Program-made: the position numbers and the translations under genes | DNA from: Eubacteriales bacterium | Lineage (GTDB): Bacteria > Bacillota > Clostridia > Oscillospirales > CAG-272 | Length of the DNA stretch: 64,000 nucleotides | Direction: 5' to 3' | NCBI GenBank assembly: GCA_045535375.1 | Contig: JAZSLM010000007.1 | Coordinates: 15,322-79,321 of the forward strand | Notes under the pieces: model-generated | What the model was told of the DNA's origin: nothing | Databases searched by the model: none | Seen by the model: the letters and a program-made list of their open reading frames with translations, nothing else | Part shown: one piece after another, positions 2,879 to 56,215 of the stretch | How positions within the stretch are numbered: the stretch's first letter is position 1 | Layout: the number at the start of each line of letters is the position of its first letter

Positions 2879-5221
2879 ATGGAAAAGAACCTATCATACA
2901 AAGCTCTGGTCGGCACAACGCTCGACTCGAGATATAAAATAGAAAAATTCCTCGGAACCGGCGGAATGAGTGTCGTCTTCAAAGCGACCGATCTGAAAGA
3001 CGGTTCCCCGGTTGCGATAAAAATGCTTCGCGACGACGTTGCGGACGACCGCGAATCGCTCGAGATATTCACGAACGAGTCAAAGGTCGTTTCGATGCTT
3101 TCGCACCCCAACATCGTATCCATCCGCGCGGTATCCTTCAAGACCGAGAAGAAATATCTCGTCATGGAATATATCGACGGAATCTCTCTGCGAACCTATA
3201 TGGACAAGCGCGGTGCGCTTGATTTTGACGAATTCATCTCATTCTCGGAGCAGATCCTTGCCGCGCTTGAGCACGCGCACAGCCGCGGTGTCGTTCACCG
3301 CGACATCAAGCCGCAGAATATTCTCGTCCTTAAGGACGGTTTTATCAAGGTAACCGACTTCGGTATCGCAAAGGTGCCCGAGAAAAACAAGGGCAAAACG
3401 ATCTCCGATAACGCGATCGGCACCGTTTACTACATCAGCCCCGAGCAGGCGGCGGCGAAGTCGACAGACTCGCGCTCCGACCTTTACTCCTTCGGCGTTA
3501 TGATGTACGAAATGGCAACGGGCAAGCTCCCCTTCGACGACGAGCGCCCCATTTCGGTGCTTATGATGCAGATACACGACAAACCCCTGCCCCCGAGAAA
3601 GATCAACAGATCGATTCCCCGCGGGCTTGAGCAGTTGATACTCACCTGCATGGAAAAGGACCCTCGCCGACGTTATCAGACGGCGAAGGACATCTTCGTT
3701 CAGATACGCAGACTCGGACAGAATCCCCTCGCCGCAGTTCCTTCCCCGAAGCAGATGGCTGCCAACGCGCGCTCACATAAAAACCGCAAGGAAAGACCTC
3801 CGAGCCGCTCTTTCTTCCCCATCGCTCTCGGAATTGCCTGCGCAGTTTGCTTTGTCGGCCTCGTTTCGGTCTTTTACGGACTTGACGCGCTTGATTTCGG
3901 TGCTCCCGGCACCTCAAGCCTTAAGGTCCCCGACAGCGTCGGAGTAGCATACAGCGAAGAGCTTATAGAAGAGCTCGGTTTCAACGAGGAGGATTATATC
4001 GTCACCGTTGAATATCTGACCTCAAACACAGTAGAAAAAGGCACGGTCATCTCGCAGAAGCCGTCCGCAGGCGCTCGCAGAAAATCACCGTGTCACGTGA
4101 CGATCTCCGTCAGCCTCGGCCCCGAGCTTGTCACGTTCGGCGACTATCTTATGATGAACTGGCGCATAGCGCAGACAAAACTCCGTTCCGAGGGTTACGC
4201 GGTAAACATCATCCGTGAGGAAAACGCCGCGATCCCGGAGGGATACGTATACGCTACCGTACCGATGCCGGGTGAAAAGATCGAGCCCGGAAGCATGATC
4301 ACCGTCTACGTCAGCGCGGGAACCGAGCAGGTACTCGTTACTCTGCCCGAATTCGTCGGTATGAGCGAGCGCGAGGCAAAAACTTTCCTCGACGAGAACG
4401 CGCTTCTTGTCGGAGAGGTGACCTATACGCGCTCTCCCAAGAAAGCGGGAACTATCATTGCGACTTCGCACCAGGCGGGAACGGGTGCATACGCATACAC
4501 GACCGCGATAGACTTTACCGTAAGCGGCGGCAGCGGCTTTGCGCTGAACGTCTGCCCCGACGTTGTGGGAAAAGAAGTCGGTCCCTCAAAGAGCGAACTT
4601 GAAGGCTACGGCGTTCAGGTAACTCTTATCACGCTCAGGGACGAAGCCCCCGAAGGAACAGTTCTTATCCAGTCCCCGAGCGCGGAGGAAGCCGTTGCGA
4701 CCAATGCAGACTCCGTCACCCTGACGGTCAGCGGCGGTCCTACATACTCGCGCACAGTCAATATGGTGAATCTCGCGGGACAGTCGCTGAACGCTGCGCG
4801 CGCGATCCTCGACTATATGTTCGAGGGTGTCTGCGAATACAAGCTGAACGTGACCTATACCATGAGCCTCAGACCCAAGGATACCATCCTCTCGCATACT
4901 CCCGGTGCGGGTCAGATCGAGCTGACCACGGGTGTTCTTGAGATCAACCTCGTTCTCAGCGGCGGAACAAATTATACTCCGCCCGTCGTCAGCGTTATCG
5001 TGCCCGACGTGCTCGGCATGACTCTTGCCGAAGCCGAAGCGCGTCTGCTCTCCGCAGGCATCGTTGTCGGCGGTGTAAGCTATGTCCAAAGCTATTCTCC
5101 CGCGGGAACCGTCATCCTTCAGTCAACCGAAGCGGGACAGTTCATCACGGGACCGCAGGGCTGGATAACGATCGACCTTGTGATCAGCGAGGGCTTCGGA
5201 TCAACCGATATACCTCAATAA
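2879..5221 (+). CDS. pknB: Ser/Thr protein kinase with one TM segment and about six PASTA-like repeats (PknB/PrkC)
   Basis: Hanks kinase motifs are present: HRDIKPQNIL, DFGIA and YISPEQ. A TM helix (FFPIALGIACAVCFVGLVSVF) follows, then repeated PASTA-like units of about 65 aa. Confidence 0.9.
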   Translation: MEKNLSYKALVGTTLDSRYKIEKFLGTGGMSVVFKATDLKDGSPVAIKMLRDDVADDRESLEIFTNESKVVSMLSHPNIVSIRAVSFKTEKKYLVMEYIDGISLRTYMDKRGALDFDEFISFSEQILAALEHAHSRGVVHRDIKPQNILVLKDGFIKVTDFGIAKVPEKNKGKTISDNAIGTVYYISPEQAAAKSTDSRSDLYSFGVMMYEMATGKLPFDDERPISVLMMQIHDKPLPPRKINRSIPRGLEQLILTCMEKDPRRRYQTAKDIFVQIRRLGQNPLAAVPSPKQMAANARSHKNRKERPPSRSFFPIALGIACAVCFVGLVSVFYGLDALDFGAPGTSSLKVPDSVGVAYSEELIEELGFNEEDYIVTVEYLTSNTVEKGTVISQKPSAGARRKSPCHVTISVSLGPELVTFGDYLMMNWRIAQTKLRSEGYAVNIIREENAAIPEGYVYATVPMPGEKIEPGSMITVYVSAGTEQVLVTLPEFVGMSEREAKTFLDENALLVGEVTYTRSPKKAGTIIATSHQAGTGAYAYTTAIDFTVSGGSGFALNVCPDVVGKEVGPSKSELEGYGVQVTLITLRDEAPEGTVLIQSPSAEEAVATNADSVTLTVSGGPTYSRTVNMVNLAGQSLNAARAILDYMFEGVCEYKLNVTYTMSLRPKDTILSHTPGAGQIELTTGVLEINLVLSGGTNYTPPVVSVIVPDVLGMTLAEAEARLLSAGIVVGGVSYVQSYSPAGTVILQSTEAGQFITGPQGWITIDLVISEGFGSTDIPQ

Positions 5222-8567: not shown

Positions 8568-8651
8568 ATGAGGATCGTTCTGATGCGCCCGCCCGCCATT
8601 CTGGCATCGATTTTGCGAAAATTTTTCGGAATAAAAAAGGCCAAAAAATAG
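8568..8651 (+). CDS. spoVM: SpoVM-like 27-aa amphipathic sporulation peptide (below the ORF-track size cutoff)
   Basis: The product is MRIVLMRPPAILASILRKFFGIKKAKK, with an AGGAGG 6 nt upstream. It aligns to my recollection of B. subtilis SpoVM (MKFYTIKLPKFLGGIVRAMLGSFRKD) at P9, L12, I15, R17 and G21. Its position downstream of thiN/yloS is the same as in B. subtilis. Confidence 0.65.
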   Translation: MRIVLMRPPAILASILRKFFGIKKAKK

Positions 8652-8674
8652 TTTGTAAAAATTATAAGCCACGT

Positions 8675-9035
8675 GCTAACAAAACGTTCTGGGTGTCCCC
8701 TCATCACCCGCTGCGGCGGGAGCTTCTCCCAGGAGAAGCCTTGGGAACTCAGTTCGTGCGTACATTGCGAATAAAGTTGAAGTTGTAATTAAAATGATAT
8801 TCGCTATGTGAATCATATATGCTTCGTGTATGATATATTTCGCCAGGGACGAAATAGAAGGTAGAGGTTTGCTAAAGCAAATTTCAATTTATTAAAAAAC
8901 ACCATTACTTTTTCGGGATCAAATAATACGAAATACAGAAAATTCAAAACACAGTTGACAGTAACTTAAGGCTTCTCCTGGGAGAAGCTCCCGCCGCAGC
9001 GGGTGATGAGGGGACACCCAGAACGCTTTGTTCGC
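8675..9035. repeat. 361-bp element: 68-nt near-perfect terminal inverted repeats (8675-8742 and 8968-9035) flanking a 225-bp AT-rich core with no ORF
   Basis: The reverse complement of the right arm matches the left arm with 2 mismatches in 68 nt. Each arm holds internal hairpins (cccgc-tgcg-gcggg and cttctcc-ca-ggagaag). The core has TATGATATAT words plus small hairpins. Confidence 0.85.
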
Positions 9036-9087
9036 ACTCGCTTTTTGATAAAAATTTTCTATTTGACCATAATTCAGGAGATAAAAA

Positions 9088-15143: not shown

Positions 15144-15218
15144 GGCCCATTGGTCAAGCGGTCAAGACGCTAGCCTCTCACGCTGGAAACTCGGGTTCGA
15201 TTCCCGGATGGGTCACCA
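15144..15218 (+). tRNA. tRNA-Glu (anticodon CUC), CCA encoded
   Basis: Hand-folded. Acceptor stem GGCCCAT/ATGGGTC. D-arm TGGTCAAGCGGTCAAGAC as in Firmicute tRNA-Glu. Anticodon stem CTAGC/GCTGG with loop CTCTCAC. T-arm TCGGG-TTCGATT-CCCGG. Ends in ACCA. Confidence 0.85.
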
Positions 15219-15220
15219 AT

Positions 15221-15258
15221 AAGAAAAGCACGACGCACAGCGTCGTGCTTTTCTTATT
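15221..15258 (+). terminator. Rho-independent terminator after the tRNA
   Basis: aagaaaagcacgacgc-acag-gcgtcgtgcttttctt, a perfect 16-bp stem followed by a T-rich tail. Confidence 0.8.
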
Positions 15259-15363: not shown

Positions 15364-15430
15364 GGGTTCAGATTCCCGGATGGGTCACCAAAAAAGAAAA
15401 ATCCGAACTCCGTTCGGATTTTTCTTTTTA
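15364..15430 (+). repeat. Duplicated tRNA-Glu 3' end (27 nt, one inserted base) plus a second terminator-like hairpin; no 5' half
   Basis: gggttcAgattcccggatgggtcacca matches tRNA positions 15192-15218. It is followed by aagaaaaatccgaac-tcc-gttcggatttttctt, which has the same AAGAAAA/TTTTCTT frame as the first terminator but a different stem core. Confidence 0.8.
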
Positions 15431-15432
15431 TT

Positions 15433-15600
15433 CAAGCCGCAGGCTTGGTATATCATCACGCGCAAGCGTGTATATCATCGCCGAAGGCGTATATCATCAC
15501 GCGTCTGCGTGTATCCCCTGCGGATTGATGATATACAATGCTGCGCATTGATGATATACCGCAACAGGTTGCGAATGATATACACGCCTTCGGCGTGATC
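15433..15600. repeat. Mirrored array of short GC hairpins punctuated by the word TATATCATC (3 forward copies, 3 reverse)
   Basis: Forward TATATCATC at 15449, 15471 and 15490. Reverse (G)ATGATATA at 15527, 15550 and 15575. Each copy adjoins a different 4-6 bp GC stem, for example cacgc-gcaa-gcgtg, cgcc-gaa-ggcg, caatgc-tgc-gcattg, cacgcc-ttc-ggcgtg. Confidence 0.8.
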
Positions 15601-47595: not shown

Positions 47596-47690
47596 TCAAT
47601 GCGAAGTGCGGCTCTGGCGGTTTTCCGAAGGAAAATGGAGGCGTGAGCCGACAAGACAGAGTCGTCATTTGCCGAAGGTAAATATTTCAG
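47596..47690 (+). ncRNA. Copy A of a structured repeat of about 85 nt (candidate small RNA or REP-like element)
   Basis: About 85% identical to 56081-56165. It has three helices (outer gcggctcTg/cAgagtcgt; ttttcC-gaa-Ggaaaa; atttgcc-gaa-ggtaaat). Differences between the copies are compensatory or wobble-compatible. Confidence 0.45.
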
Positions 47691-47831
47691 CTTTTGCTTC
47701 AATGCTTCGAAAATCTGAAGCTCTGCTTCTGATTTTCGGACAGAGTCGATACTTCCCGAATGTAGGGAAGTATCGACTTTGTCACCCCACCGCATCGGTT
47801 GAATAATACAAGCTTATCGAGGAGAATGTAC

Positions 47832-48568: not shown

Positions 48569-49010
48569 GTGCTCTCAGACTTCCCCCTTCCGGTTTACGG
48601 AAGGGGGAGTGAGGGGGATGGTCCCGTGCGGATTCGGCGGTTTTCCGTAGGAAAACGGCGGTGTTTAACCGCCGAGACGGATTCGCCGCTTGCCGAAAGG
48701 CAAGCATTTTGCCGACACAAAATTATTAGGATATCGGCAAAGATTCTGAGCAGGCGCAAAATTATCTCCGAGGCCCCGCAGGAAGAATAAAATCGCTGTA
48801 GATTAGCGCGCCCGAATGGGCGCGCGGGGTGAAGGAGCGAAAACCTCCCGCGAGGGGAGGTTTTACTCCTTCCAAACGGTCGGCAGGGGCGCCGCCCGTT
48901 TGAAGCACGGAGAGTGTTTCGCCCTCTGCGGAGGGCGACTAAAGAAACTTTTTGAAAAAAGTTTCTTTAGAATCTTCAAAAACTTCCCGCTGATTTCTGT
49001 CGAATGAAAG
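48569..49010. repeat. Dense array of at least eight unrelated GC hairpins, including divergent copy C (48625-48716) of the structured repeat
   Basis: Examples: cttcccccttccg-gttta-cggaagggggag, ttttcc-gta-ggaaaa, cggcgg-tgtttaa-ccgccg, cttgcc-gaaa-ggcaag, gcgcgccc-gaat-gggcgcgc, aaacctcccc-gcga-ggggaggttt, cgccctc-tgcg-gagggcg, aaagaaacttttt-gaaa-aaagtttcttt. Confidence 0.75.
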
Positions 49011-49019
49011 GAAAAATTT

Positions 49020-50300
49020 ATGGACATTTCCGCAATTCTTAAAAATCTTGAGCACTGCCCTTGCGGCAGGGTGCACACCGTAAACATCAAAGCCGTCGAG
49101 ATCGGCGATGGTGTGCTTGCGCGAACTGCCGAAATCTTGCGCGGTGCGGGATTTCCCCGCCGAATTCTTGCCGTTGCTGACAAAAACACTCTTGCGGCTT
49201 CGGGAAATATCATAAATATACTCGAAAACGGCGGTTTTTCGGTAAAGCTCAAGCTTTACGACGATCTGCGCGAGCCGACTGTCGAGCGAGTGAATGAAAT
49301 TTGTAAACTTTGCGCCGATGTCGAAGCCATTCTTTCGATCGGCACGGGATCGCTCAACGACATCTGCCGCCGCGCGGCGCTCCTATGTGACCGTGAATTC
49401 GCGATCTTTGCAACCGCGCCCTCGATGGACGGTTTCGCTTCGGGAACCTCGCCGATAATCGAAAACGGCTTCAAGGCGACTCTTCCCGCGCGTCAGCCTT
49501 CGGTCATCATTGCCGACACCGCCATCCTCGCCGCCGCGCCCGCGCATCTCAAAGCCGCGGGATTCGGCGACATTATCGGAAAATTCACCGCCCTTGTCGA
49601 TTGGCGCGTGGCGCATCTGACCGTCGGTGAATACTATTGCGAAAATATCGCGAATCTCGTCCGCGAGGCGCTTCGCAGAATTTGCTCGATGGCTCACCGC
49701 GTTTCCGCAGAAGATGCCGAAACCGCGGGCACGATCATGGAGATCCTCGTTTTCACGGGACTTGCAATGAAGCTTGCCGAAGCCTCCCGTCCCGCCTCCG
49801 GCGCGGAGCACATGATCTCGCACATGATCGGCATGCGCCGGCTCGCCGAGGGTAAGATCTCGGATTTTCACGGCAAAAAGGTCGGCGTCGCCACCGTGAC
49901 CCTTTGCGATCTGTATCATAAGTCAACCGAAATTACACCGAATTTCCGTCCCGACACTCCCGATTGGGAGCGCGTTTACACCGCGTTTGGCGAAAACATC
50001 AAGGGAAACATCATCCGCGAGAATTCGCCGCCTATCACCGACCGCCTCGATCCCGCAGTCATAGCTTCGCAGTGGCAGGAAATCGGCAAGATCGTCCGCG
50101 AGGAGCTGCCAACGCAGGCTGAACTTCTCGAGATTATGCACGCGGCAGGCGCGGCAACGACCTACGCAGAGATCGATACCGACGAAGCTCTCGCCCGCGA
50201 CTGCATCGTCTATCATCCCTACATGCGCGACAAGATCGTCCTCTCGCGCATCCTCCGCATGACAGATATTGATCCCGCGGAGTTTGTAAGATTCAAATAA
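49020..50300 (+). CDS. Iron-containing alcohol dehydrogenase-family protein, sn-glycerol-1-phosphate dehydrogenase-like (AraM/EgsA-like)
   Basis: 426 aa with GTGSLNDICR and ASGAEHMISHMIG metal-site motifs. Confidence 0.6.
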   Translation: MDISAILKNLEHCPCGRVHTVNIKAVEIGDGVLARTAEILRGAGFPRRILAVADKNTLAASGNIINILENGGFSVKLKLYDDLREPTVERVNEICKLCADVEAILSIGTGSLNDICRRAALLCDREFAIFATAPSMDGFASGTSPIIENGFKATLPARQPSVIIADTAILAAAPAHLKAAGFGDIIGKFTALVDWRVAHLTVGEYYCENIANLVREALRRICSMAHRVSAEDAETAGTIMEILVFTGLAMKLAEASRPASGAEHMISHMIGMRRLAEGKISDFHGKKVGVATVTLCDLYHKSTEITPNFRPDTPDWERVYTAFGENIKGNIIRENSPPITDRLDPAVIASQWQEIGKIVREELPTQAELLEIMHAAGAATTYAEIDTDEALARDCIVYHPYMRDKIVLSRILRMTDIDPAEFVRFK

Positions 50301-55734: not shown

Positions 55735-55900
55735 TTTTGTCATCTCCTTTCACTAAACAAGAAGCGTTTTGCCGAGCCCGCGTCACCGATATTTTCAAAT
55801 TTCAGCTTTCTGCATAAATCTTCACGGCGTTTTTTGTGCAATTTGTTGTTCTGATATTATATTATCATATTTTTTTGGAGTTGTCAAGAGGATTTGATTT

Positions 55901-56215
55901 GCGACCTCTGCGGAGGTCGCGCGATATGCTCGCTTCGCGAGCGTGATATATCTTCGACACGATATGCCTTACGGCACGATATATTTCGCCGCGGCGAAAT
56001 GTTTCGGTGAATTTCCGCGGAGCGGAAATTTTCCTATTAATATCACGTTCGCCTGCGGCGAACATATCGTATCGCCATAAGCCGTGCGGCTCCGGCGGTT
56101 TTCTGCAAGAAAATGGAGGCGGAAGCCGACAAGCCGGAGTCGTAATTTGCCGAAGGCAAGTATTATATCGTGTGCCAACATATCGTATGAGCGCAGCGAA
56201 TATATCGTGTTTACA
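55901..56215. repeat. Hairpin array with the word TATATCGTG in divergent orientation, surrounding copy B (56081-56165) of the structured repeat
   Basis: Reverse copies: GTGATATATC at 55943, CACGATATG at 55958, CACGATATAT at 55975. Forward copies: ATATCGT at 56064 and 56180, TATATCGTG at 56164 and 56201. Interleaved hairpins: gcgacctc-tgc-ggaggtcgc, gctcgc-ttc-gcgagc, ttcgcc-gc-ggcgaa, tttccgc-gga-gcggaaa, gttcgcc-tgc-ggcgaac. Confidence 0.75.

Follow-up and report, generated by a model that had tools for sequence, protein, structure and literature searches.

The DNA analyzed here, which we call the window throughout, is a stretch of 64,000 nucleotides (nt) from a Eubacteriales bacterium (contig JAZSLM010000007.1). 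Between a short spoVM-like gene and ygiQ, it carries a 365-bp foldback element (positions 8673–9037) that consists of two inverted-repeat arms around a 225-nt AT-rich core. On balance, we consider this element to be probably a copy of a clade-restricted, non-coding, modular foldback repeat family resembling BOX elements, REPINs and MITEs (miniature inverted-repeat transposable elements), with arms that mediate inversion and deletion. The family has many copies; relatives differ in the presence or absence of the element, in arm type, in collapse to a mini-palindrome and in core orientation, and the hairpins of the arms are preserved by compensatory changes and their C-rich lead is conserved.

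The locus had been picked out in an earlier reading of the sequence alone (hereafter, the original prediction), which described near-perfect inverted arms at 8675–8742 and 8968–9035, each with two internal hairpins, around a low-GC core without open reading frames (ORFs). A repeat search of the window recovers these arms 2 nt wider on each side (70 nt each, 97% complementary, with the same 2 mismatches; Table 1), and the repeat reaches 8666–9044 if a 3-nt mismatch is allowed. It is the sole near-perfect long inverted repeat within the window, where the 50-nt inner arm has exactly 2 matches, versus 0 in 100 shuffles. Folding confirms the two hairpins of each arm (8707–8720 and 8722–8739, mirrored within 8971–9003), and a 391-nt region spanning the element folds at −199.7 kcal/mol (shuffles, −95.6 ± 5.3; z = −19.5), with a minimum free energy (MFE) structure that is the complete pairing of arm with arm. 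The element is thus an inverted doublet of conserved hairpin units that can fold as a single hairpin, as in REPINs. The core has 27–35% GC versus 55–62% in the flanking genes and holds no credible ORF, only one of 44 aa on the minus strand; its words ATGATATAT and TCATATAT resemble, as had been noted, those of a hairpin array at 15430–15600. An arm, in turn, is open in all three forward and two reverse frames. The accompanying suggestion that arm-derived ORFs could contaminate protein databases proves correct on a small scale: one public entry, P0133 ('hypothetical protein IJF21_02080'), derives from an arm, and three others (P0121, P0123 and P0125) read through whole elements. In practical terms, the family both breaks assemblies and seeds spurious 'hypothetical proteins' in databases.

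Table 1. Features of the spoVM–ygiQ junction in the window.
Feature	Positions	Strand	Remarks
spoVM-like 27-aa ORF MRIVLMRPPAILASILRKFFGIKKAKK	8569–8651	+	Upstream neighbour; stop codon TAG at 8649–8651; conserved in all relatives
Block missing from the empty sites of L059/L091/L094 and L086/L084	8652–9073	.	21 nt, the foldback element, and 36 nt with the promoter-like site
Left arm	8673–8742	+	A-type outer segment 8673–8691; invariant module 8692–8741
Left-arm C-rich lead GGTGTCCCCTCATCACCC	8692–8709	+	Invariant in ~100 arms
Left-arm hairpin 1, CCCGC-TGCG-GCGGG	8707–8720	+	Folding; compensatory variants, 100% pairing across arm types
Left-arm hairpin 2, GCTTCTC-CCAG-GAGAAGC	8722–8739	+	Folding and variant analysis
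AT-rich core	8743–8967	+	3′ half homologous to the family core (BLAST against other elements; comparison with L026)
Degenerate Gut-1-like array	8786–8841	+	TGATAT/TCATATAT/ATGATATAT words alternating with short hairpins; RF01706, 18.2 bits
Terminator-like hairpin GAGGTTTGCTAAAGCAAATTTC followed by AATTTATT	8864–8885	+	Best-conserved core block of the family
Right arm	8968–9037	−	Reverse complement of the left arm; hairpin 2′ 8971–8988, hairpin 1′ 8990–9003, lead′ 9001–9018
TTTTT run	9042–9046	+	Directly past the foldback base; terminator-like configuration
Sigma-70-like promoter candidate TTGATA-17-CATAAT facing ygiQ	9045–9073	+	Absent from the empty sites
ygiQ, radical SAM protein, 644 aa	9088–11022	+	Downstream neighbour; Pfam Radical_SAM_N and DUF3362, NCBI names

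A dispersed family built on a 50-nt arm module

A 22-mer from the arm occurs at 52 loci (given L numbers here) in 5 species represented by metagenome-assembled genomes (MAGs) of uncultured Clostridia/Eubacteriales from goat, cattle and other guts. The copy-number check proposed in the original prediction therefore finds the element multi-copy, and clearly not a single-copy feature fixed in position and orientation in all relatives. BLAST and anchored searches yielded a catalogue of 92 arms (56 in RGIG1801, 22 in SGB_169, 6 in RGIG402, 4 in SGB_892 and 2 in SGB_7356). An 18-mer scan of a metagenome collection added true arms only in RHMF01 and JAEIGA01, its other 11 matches being due to chance; with just these two further assemblies, the family is narrow, and no autonomous copy surfaced in the scan. 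Overall, some 100 arms in five MAGs and two metagenome assemblies are at hand, and they are nearly universally arranged as inverted pairs: 34–37 pairs are complete, delimiting elements of 274–446 bp, with at least 28 elements in a single MAG. No arm copies were found in viral contigs, nor any similarity to the arms in plasmid and phage collections. A tRNA-like or other known non-coding RNA identity of the arm likewise has no support, as Rfam gave no arm match at gathering or relaxed thresholds. The searchable literature holds nothing similar. This is thus a family of small non-coding repeats in uncultured gut Clostridia that has not been described before.

With a single copy in 64 kb, the repeat might have passed for a local one-off inverted duplication or an assembly artefact. 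To that explanation we assign virtually no probability, and it is already refuted: the ~100 arms come from independent assemblies made in different studies, with different assemblers and from different hosts, orthologous copies occupy this very site in three species, and the repeat is shorter than the k = 141 that contig names give for several of the assemblies.

Alignment of the arms separates an invariant inner part of ~50 nt (GGTGTCCCCTCATCACCC, then CCCGC-TGCG-GCGGG, a single A, and GCTTCTC-CCAG-GAGAAGC) from an outer ~20 nt that falls into four recurrent types, A, A′, B and C. The A type, AAGCAAGTGCGAACAAAGCGTTCTG, is present on both sides in the window; A′ segments carry GAACATAGACGCACTT, and roughly every second B segment, CACTTGATATAATGCAGTACAGAC, has the look of an extended −10 promoter that faces inward. 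Over the outer 24 nt, likeness within elements (0.49) does not exceed that between elements (0.53; permutation p = 0.87), ruling out selection for arm–arm complementarity in this segment. The 70-nt match in the window therefore reflects two A-type ends, whereas the family-wide repeat is the 50-nt module, and only ~50 bp of arm–arm pairing is general. The original prediction had offered, as one of three possibilities, a 68-bp RNA stem that RNase III would cut, insulating ygiQ; a stem of that length is no general feature of the family. T-runs of at least 4 follow 31% of A-type ends versus 12% of control windows, which gives only partial support to the idea that A-type ends act as bidirectional terminators.

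Variation within the module bears on what it does. The stems of the standard (type-1) arms are nearly invariant, with one compensatory pair, G:C to U:A, in 13 arms. This change is always confined to one arm per element, so that the local hairpin is kept and the arm–arm duplex is broken; the compensatory changes thus preserve local hairpins and not the arm–arm duplex. Loop-length variants (for example, in L004 and L007) also leave hairpin 1 intact. Type-2 arms (two elements in L093, and those of L019 and L013) and the type-3 arm of L079 keep the lead YCYCCTCATCNACC and the order of lead, hairpin 1 and hairpin 2; their stems differ (ACCGC/GCGGT or ACCAC/GTGGT in hairpin 1; CCTTCCCC/GGGGAAGG in hairpin 2). 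Among nine distinct variants, hairpin 1 is 100% paired, with double changes at 2 of its 5 pairs, one of which occurs as three pair types, and none of 500 shuffles reaches the observed covariation across arm types; this covariation becomes convincing only with the type-2 arms added, since type-1 arms alone give the one compensatory pair. Every arm variant folds independently to lead, hairpin 1 and hairpin 2. The loop of hairpin 1 can hold a 45-nt structured insertion, an optional domain given its occurrence in both types 1 and 2, and hairpin 2 can hold an insertion of ~75 nt. The hairpin-preserving variation, the common fold and the structured loop insertions together argue for a module that works in folded form, as single-stranded DNA (ssDNA) or RNA, and against a palindromic binding site in double-stranded DNA. 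As every compensatory change is Watson-Crick, the strand of the folded module cannot be assigned from them. In orthologous copies from species 6–15% diverged, the modules are identical amid diverged cores and intergenic flanks, which indicates that the arm sequence itself is under selection. This strong conservation at orthologous sites, alongside structure-preserving variation between types, is a puzzle, and in our view it points indirectly to a trans-acting factor. More speculatively, the lead might mimic an anti-Shine-Dalgarno sequence, or the arm might form a k-turn (UGAUGA).

Structured RNAs, too, typically show hairpin-preserving variation and structured loop insertions. Together with the complete pairing of the arms in the MFE fold and the T-run enrichment past A-type ends, these features would fit an RNA gene or processing cassette. 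Under this explanation, the arms would pair into a long stem or fold locally, RNase III or another nuclease would excise and stabilize the array of the core from read-through transcripts and insulate the flanking genes, and the copies would be duplications of a useful cassette. We consider this unlikely. Once transcribed, an arm is the complement of its partner and not a second copy of it, which would prevent one RNA-binding factor with sequence specificity from reading both, and yet both are intact and invariant; if pairing alone mattered, the arms of different copies would be free to drift apart. In addition, the outer segments lack any excess of within-element complementarity, and the arms are without an Rfam match. 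The cores provide further evidence on both sides, considered with them below.

Core arrays, the Gut-1 motif and core inversion

Most copies have homologous cores (80–99% identity over ~200 nt) with a common layout: a 5′ hairpin, 3–5 units each made of a 7–8-nt word (GCTAAAT, GTGAAAT and similar) and a short variable hairpin, a conserved terminator-like hairpin (GAAATTTGCCAAGGCAAATTTC, then AATTT), and ~60 nt more. Two of them, in L013 (59.5 bits) and L052 (54.8 bits), pass the gathering score of 50 bits for Gut-1 (Rfam RF01706). Gut-1 was described in 2010 from 43 representatives, found only in human-gut metagenomes and linked to no organism or function, and was judged from covariation to be a genuine RNA (PMC2864571, Weinberg et al. 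2010). A literature search returned no paper on Gut-1 later than that description, and the flanks in the published alignment contain none of the arms reported here. A strong match, at 70.4 bits, is an armless array in the spoVM–ygiQ spacer of a more distant relative (L085, 1384–1467, minus strand), where it lies antisense to the genes. The window core itself scores 18.2 bits (E 1.1), below the gathering score, and is a diverged (decayed) Gut-1 relative rather than a scoring member. Its alignment to the other family cores is mostly limited to the 3′ half, its array has diverged to an ATGATAT word that also occurs at 15.4 kb, and the tandem arrangement of word and hairpin at 8786–8856 matches the layout of the published Gut-1 alignment.

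Other cores are unrelated to Gut-1 (for example, those of L017/L043, L029/L044 and L034/L035), and similar word-and-hairpin arrays lie outside the arms as well, where they point inward, which makes the system modular. Further combinations of modules are seen where truncated arms, consisting of the lead only or of lead and hairpin 1, are joined directly to a Gut-1-type array (L064, 1373–1563; L048, 1400). Whereas Gut-1 was described as a free-standing small RNA candidate, here it is a repeat module, in both orientations and both inside and outside arms, in MAGs of ruminant-gut Clostridia. An Rfam family that has been an orphan since 2010 thereby gains MAG lineages and a repeat-element setting for the first time, and the motif can be reinterpreted in a testable way; the original prediction had not drawn the link to Gut-1. 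For the RNA cassette introduced above, the covariation-based judgement of Gut-1 as a genuine RNA (PMC2864571) counts in its favour, as do the co-directional gene context of the elements and the position of the array on the sense strand in ~14 of 18 cases; that cores can be inverted, or replaced by sequence other than Gut-1, speaks against it.

Two other places in the window have related features. The first, at 55892–55970 on the plus strand, is a second weak Gut-1 match (34 bits, E 0.008), again below the gathering score. The second is the array at 15430–15600 mentioned above, a mirror-image hairpin array in which three repeats of a hairpin followed by TATATCAT are succeeded by three of ATGATATAC followed by a hairpin. 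It lies 3′ of a tRNA gene (15144–15215), a layout that it has in common with some of the original Gut-1 representatives, which also follow a tRNA. The 3′ end of this tRNA is duplicated 172 nt downstream at 90% identity (15199–15227 and 15371–15399) and could be the remnant of an integration site.

Comparison of orthologous loci reveals, in three cases, that cores differ in orientation between species. L029 of RGIG1801 and L044 of SGB_169 have collinear flanks (91%), and the interior from arm to arm is reversed (86.9% over 259 nt); the flanks of L039 in RGIG1801 are collinear at 94–96% with two SGB_169 contig ends (L042 and L036), and its interior is reversed at 87–91%. At the spoVM–ygiQ junction, 42 nt of the window core next to the ygiQ-side arm correspond to the reverse of the core at the spoVM-side arm in L038 (87.8% over 123 nt including the arm), and the Gut-1-sense strand points toward ygiQ in the window (plus strand) and toward spoVM in RGIG1801 and SGB_169. 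The inversions break within the invariant module only. Several assemblies used k = 141, which exceeds the length of the repeats, so that an assembler is unlikely to have mis-oriented the cores. In 5 of 7 comparisons of species G (RGIG1801) with S (SGB_169) or Q, orientation is kept. We also considered contig ends at elements as a sign of population-level inversion; these are non-diagnostic, as the break positions misfit the expected graph topology and the RGIG assembler is unknown. The two core orientations are thus established between species only.

These inversions raise the question of whether the elements are programmed invertible switches, an inverton regulon in which the 50-nt modules would be sites of one dedicated recombinase that flips a Gut-1 array or a type-2 promoter at dozens of loci, with phase variation of read-through into, or expression of, the neighbours. 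Well-studied invertons, such as the cwpV and flgB switches of C. difficile, have repeats of ~10–40 bp without internal hairpins, a known recombinase and both orientations within a culture, and Clostridia are known to use, as one kind of switch, a terminator whose effect depends on orientation. The likeness here lies in inverted repeats around a short segment found in both orientations (between species), with a promoter or gene upstream of it and a gene downstream. Beyond the collinear flanks and breakpoints just described, the case for such a switch draws on the identity of the module in every copy and species, in contrast to the divergent cores and outer segments, on the location of elements mostly between co-directional genes with promoters just outside, on a TGCTATAAT extended −10 in type-2 cores, and on the ~half of B-type outer segments that look like inward-facing extended −10 promoters. 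We nevertheless regard it as improbable, and no more probable than the RNA cassette. Orientation is mostly kept in the comparisons above; the window core has no promoter-like site, only the plus-strand terminator-like hairpin at 8864–8885; a double-stranded site for dimer binding would be split by the insertions of 45–75 nt that the arms tolerate in both hairpin loops; none of the copies has a recombinase nearby, although a genome-wide search was not made; and the neighbours are housekeeping genes, not surface or variable ones. Moreover, RecA-type recombination between identical inverted repeats of 50–70 nt can yield rare inversions, and could equally account for those seen. Of the suggestion in the original prediction that the core is an invertible segment, then, the inversion between orthologous loci of different species stands, this locus included; a recombinase near the copies and a promoter-like site in the window core were not found.

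States of the spoVM–ygiQ junction in relatives

Synteny with the window is retained at 80–88% identity in L017 (SGB_169) and L038 (RGIG1801), both of which have a type-1 element at exactly the same site, with arms identical to those of the window and cores that are nearly unalignable with it. Further relatives, reached via YgiQ homologues, display a range of other states. In the close relatives L059, L091 and L094 the site is empty, with a 15-nt spacer in which the spoVM stop adjoins the ygiQ ribosome-binding site; the outgroups L086 (spacer of ~22 nt) and L084 (~45 nt, with a plain GC hairpin) are likewise empty, so the empty sites that the original prediction had proposed to look for do exist. 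The spacer of the window, by comparison, measures 436 nt versus 15–45 nt. A mini-palindrome of ~100 nt with B-type ends and a diverged lead occupies the site in L053–L058 and L087–L090, a full-size foldback with type-2 arms that in L092 and L093 (GCA_017628755.1), and a bare antisense Gut-1 array that in L085. The junction is thus a compact case of repeat-driven remodelling, in which close relatives differ between empty, array-only and mini-palindrome states, between two arm types and between the two core orientations.

Since the site is empty in both outgroups, this comparison shows a junction that was ancestrally tight and an element that is an insertion. The ygiQ tree and identities add a further step: the filled RGIG1801 is closer to the empty L091/L094 (95.8%) than to the filled SGB_169 (93.7%), which makes it more likely that the empty lineage lost the element secondarily. 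A derived TCA to CTC change in this lineage, exactly at the junction, is a possible excision footprint. The mini-palindrome is identical across at least 10 loci of different samples and consists of a B-type end, lead, single central hairpin, lead′ and second B-type end, a form expected if two inverted arms had undergone a deletion between their palindromic hairpin-1 stems. A regular-expression search of the collected loci, a sample biased towards full arms, returned no type-1 mini-palindromes. In L093 (JAGBYM010000107.1), two type-2 foldbacks (1163–1461 and 3539–3897) have a common core that includes an inner inverted repeat (AAATAGGAA...TTCCTATTT) and, as a promoter-like box, (TG)CTATAAT; the second of them lies between the terminators of convergent genes. 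A sub-threshold Rfam match to 'MIR7533' in this locus is merely due to the long foldback.

As for the neighbours in the window, the 27-aa ORF gives a full-length match to NCBIfam SpoVM_broad at 23 bits (E 5.9e-5), below the cutoff of 31. The rsgA and thiamine pyrophosphokinase (TPK) genes lie upstream of it, an arrangement also seen in B. subtilis; identification of the ORF as spoVM is plausible. The element would have split an ancestrally tight, translationally adjacent spoVM–ygiQ pair into two units, with a terminator-like foldback and a new promoter-like site between them. The foldback base is followed by TTTTT, and the inner hairpin at 8864–8885 is also terminator-like, but a loop of 225 nt is not canonical for a terminator.

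Candidate mechanism and related repeat systems

By crude long-ORF calls, the two neighbours of an element are co-directional in ~20 of 24 scorable cases, and often both are only 10–150 nt away, and the Gut-1 array is on the strand of the genes in ~14 of 18 cases. Genes within 1.25 kb of elements belong to ordinary housekeeping families, and near-consensus outward promoters lie just outside 16 of 111 anchor matches scanned (~100 true arms, the rest chance).

In the repeat-family account, an element consists of two inverted ~50-nt modules (C-rich single-stranded lead, hairpin 1 with its optional extension domain, and hairpin 2), variable outer segments and an AT-rich cargo, mostly a Gut-1-type array of word and hairpin ending in a terminator-like hairpin. 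Spread and maintenance might depend on a trans-acting enzyme encoded away from the copies, which would recognize the arm module in its folded, single-stranded form (ssDNA or RNA), much as REPs are recognized by RAYTs. Recombination of the identical inverted modules would flip the cargo, and their internal palindromes would permit collapse or loss. In the window, insertion may have uncoupled ygiQ from spoVM: in a spoVM transcript, the array would be closed off by a long stem with TTTTT after it, leading to termination or processing, and ygiQ would be expressed from the adjacent promoter-like site.

Several observations weigh against this account. Identical modules at 6–15% divergence imply selection exceeding that on a decaying selfish repeat, and the outermost ends are least conserved and of four types, unlike classical MITE termini. 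A Pfam search of 135 neighbouring genes found no recombinase or transposase family with two or more members, all-vs-all ORF clustering found no ORF family recurring beside non-orthologous copies, and no arm pair flanks a gene in the collected loci, although whole genomes were not searched and absence is unproven. Transposition itself was not observed, and the gain at this junction could in principle represent recombinational transfer. An ATAAT direct repeat bounds the insert in SGB_169 and RGIG1801, occurs once in empty sites and is imperfect in the window, but a target-site duplication is only suggested by it, as it lies 20–55 nt outside the arms, in AT-rich sequence, at the one locus with an empty site for comparison. 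Any effect on spoVM or ygiQ expression is purely conjectural.

In a bolder variant, which we hold to be quite unlikely and slightly more so than either the switch or the RNA cassette, the arms would be single-stranded-hairpin recognition modules of an undiscovered recombination system in uncultured gut Clostridia, by which RNA-array or promoter cassettes would be moved, flipped and deleted at dozens of junctions between housekeeping genes. The Gut-1 'RNAs' would then be exchangeable cargo, serving as orientation-dependent insulators or as sponges for a species-specific factor, and the spoVM–ygiQ junction a targeted hot spot with at least 5 states among genomes 85–96% identical.

Returning to the repeat-family account, the element belongs to the kind of interspersed modular foldback repeats and not to any named family. 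The closest architecture is that of the BOX elements of pneumococci and S. suis, in which terminal boxA and boxC enclose tandem, independently folding boxB units, the S. suis families vary termini around shared internal modules, and ORFs are created (PMC3049150). Both are small, intergenic and non-coding, with pairing terminal modules of ~50 nt around variable internal ones (here, arms around 3–5 units of word and hairpin); both combine different terminal modules with shared internal ones, are predicted to form stem-loops if transcribed, give rise to spurious or novel ORFs, encode no transposase and make a target duplication hard to establish. This likeness is architectural only. Unlike those of BOX, the termini here repeat a single module in true inverted form, and this module contains two conserved hairpins; the interior is built from ~20-nt Gut-1 units of word and hairpin as opposed to the 45-nt boxB, its inversion is documented, and the hosts are uncultured gut Clostridia.

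A second parallel is with the REPINs, long-persisting inverted REP doublets that fold in ssDNA or mRNA (PMC3116915). REPINs and BIMEs, with their RAYTs, are likewise extragenic inverted doublets of hairpin units with a spacer, present in tens to hundreds per genome, highly conserved and persistent at orthologous sites, BIMEs being in addition mosaic with other motifs (PMC3116915, PMC3337134). The units here are larger than REPs (~50 nt, with two hairpins and a lead, versus ~20–25 nt), the spacer is ~200 nt with an RNA-like array, and the hosts are Clostridia. We know of no description of long-term associations of the REPIN–RAYT kind from Clostridia. Among the genes of the 8-kb loci none was a RAYT (Y1 transposase), whole genomes not having been searched.

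Finally, Correia elements of Neisseria (PMC2649163) and bacterial MITEs (PMC2229807, PMC10969869) also consist of a short non-coding core between terminal inverted repeats, are polymorphic in their insertion between strains or species, lie between genes and have promoters at or beside their ends, with hairpin RNA that can be cut by RNase III or act as a terminator as a further theme (PMC2649163). The repeats of Correia elements measure 26 bp, their TA duplication is defined and their tips are sharply conserved; in the present family the tips vary and it is the structured internal part that is conserved. The family is small, non-coding and multi-copy and has terminal inverted repeats (the 50-nt invariant module; 70 nt in the window), and its empty sites fit as well, so the MITE reading of the original prediction holds in these respects; it falls short in that neither a clear target-site duplication nor, in the collected loci, a parent transposase was found, and the least-conserved tips are atypical.

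The window contains other repeats besides. A hairpin-rich block of ~150 nt (48829–48985), upstream of an ORF starting at 49021, recurs at 78–88% identity in at least 8 loci of three other genomes (L004, L013, L019, L024, L031, L037, L046 and L052) and constitutes another multi-copy intergenic family, without an Rfam match. A third repeat family (GTGCGGCTCTGGCGGTTTTCCGAAGGAAAATGGAGGCG...) is present at 47606–47697, 48626–48664 and 56084–56175, and related sequence adjoins the L050 element. Four paralogous gene-start regions (37.0–37.6, 42.7–43.2, 55.2–55.7 and 57.9–58.5 kb), 60–75% identical over 250 nt and with inverted counterparts at 30.8–31.2 kb, suggest a multigene family, possibly sigma-factor-like to judge from its MDDKRIIELFFARDE start.

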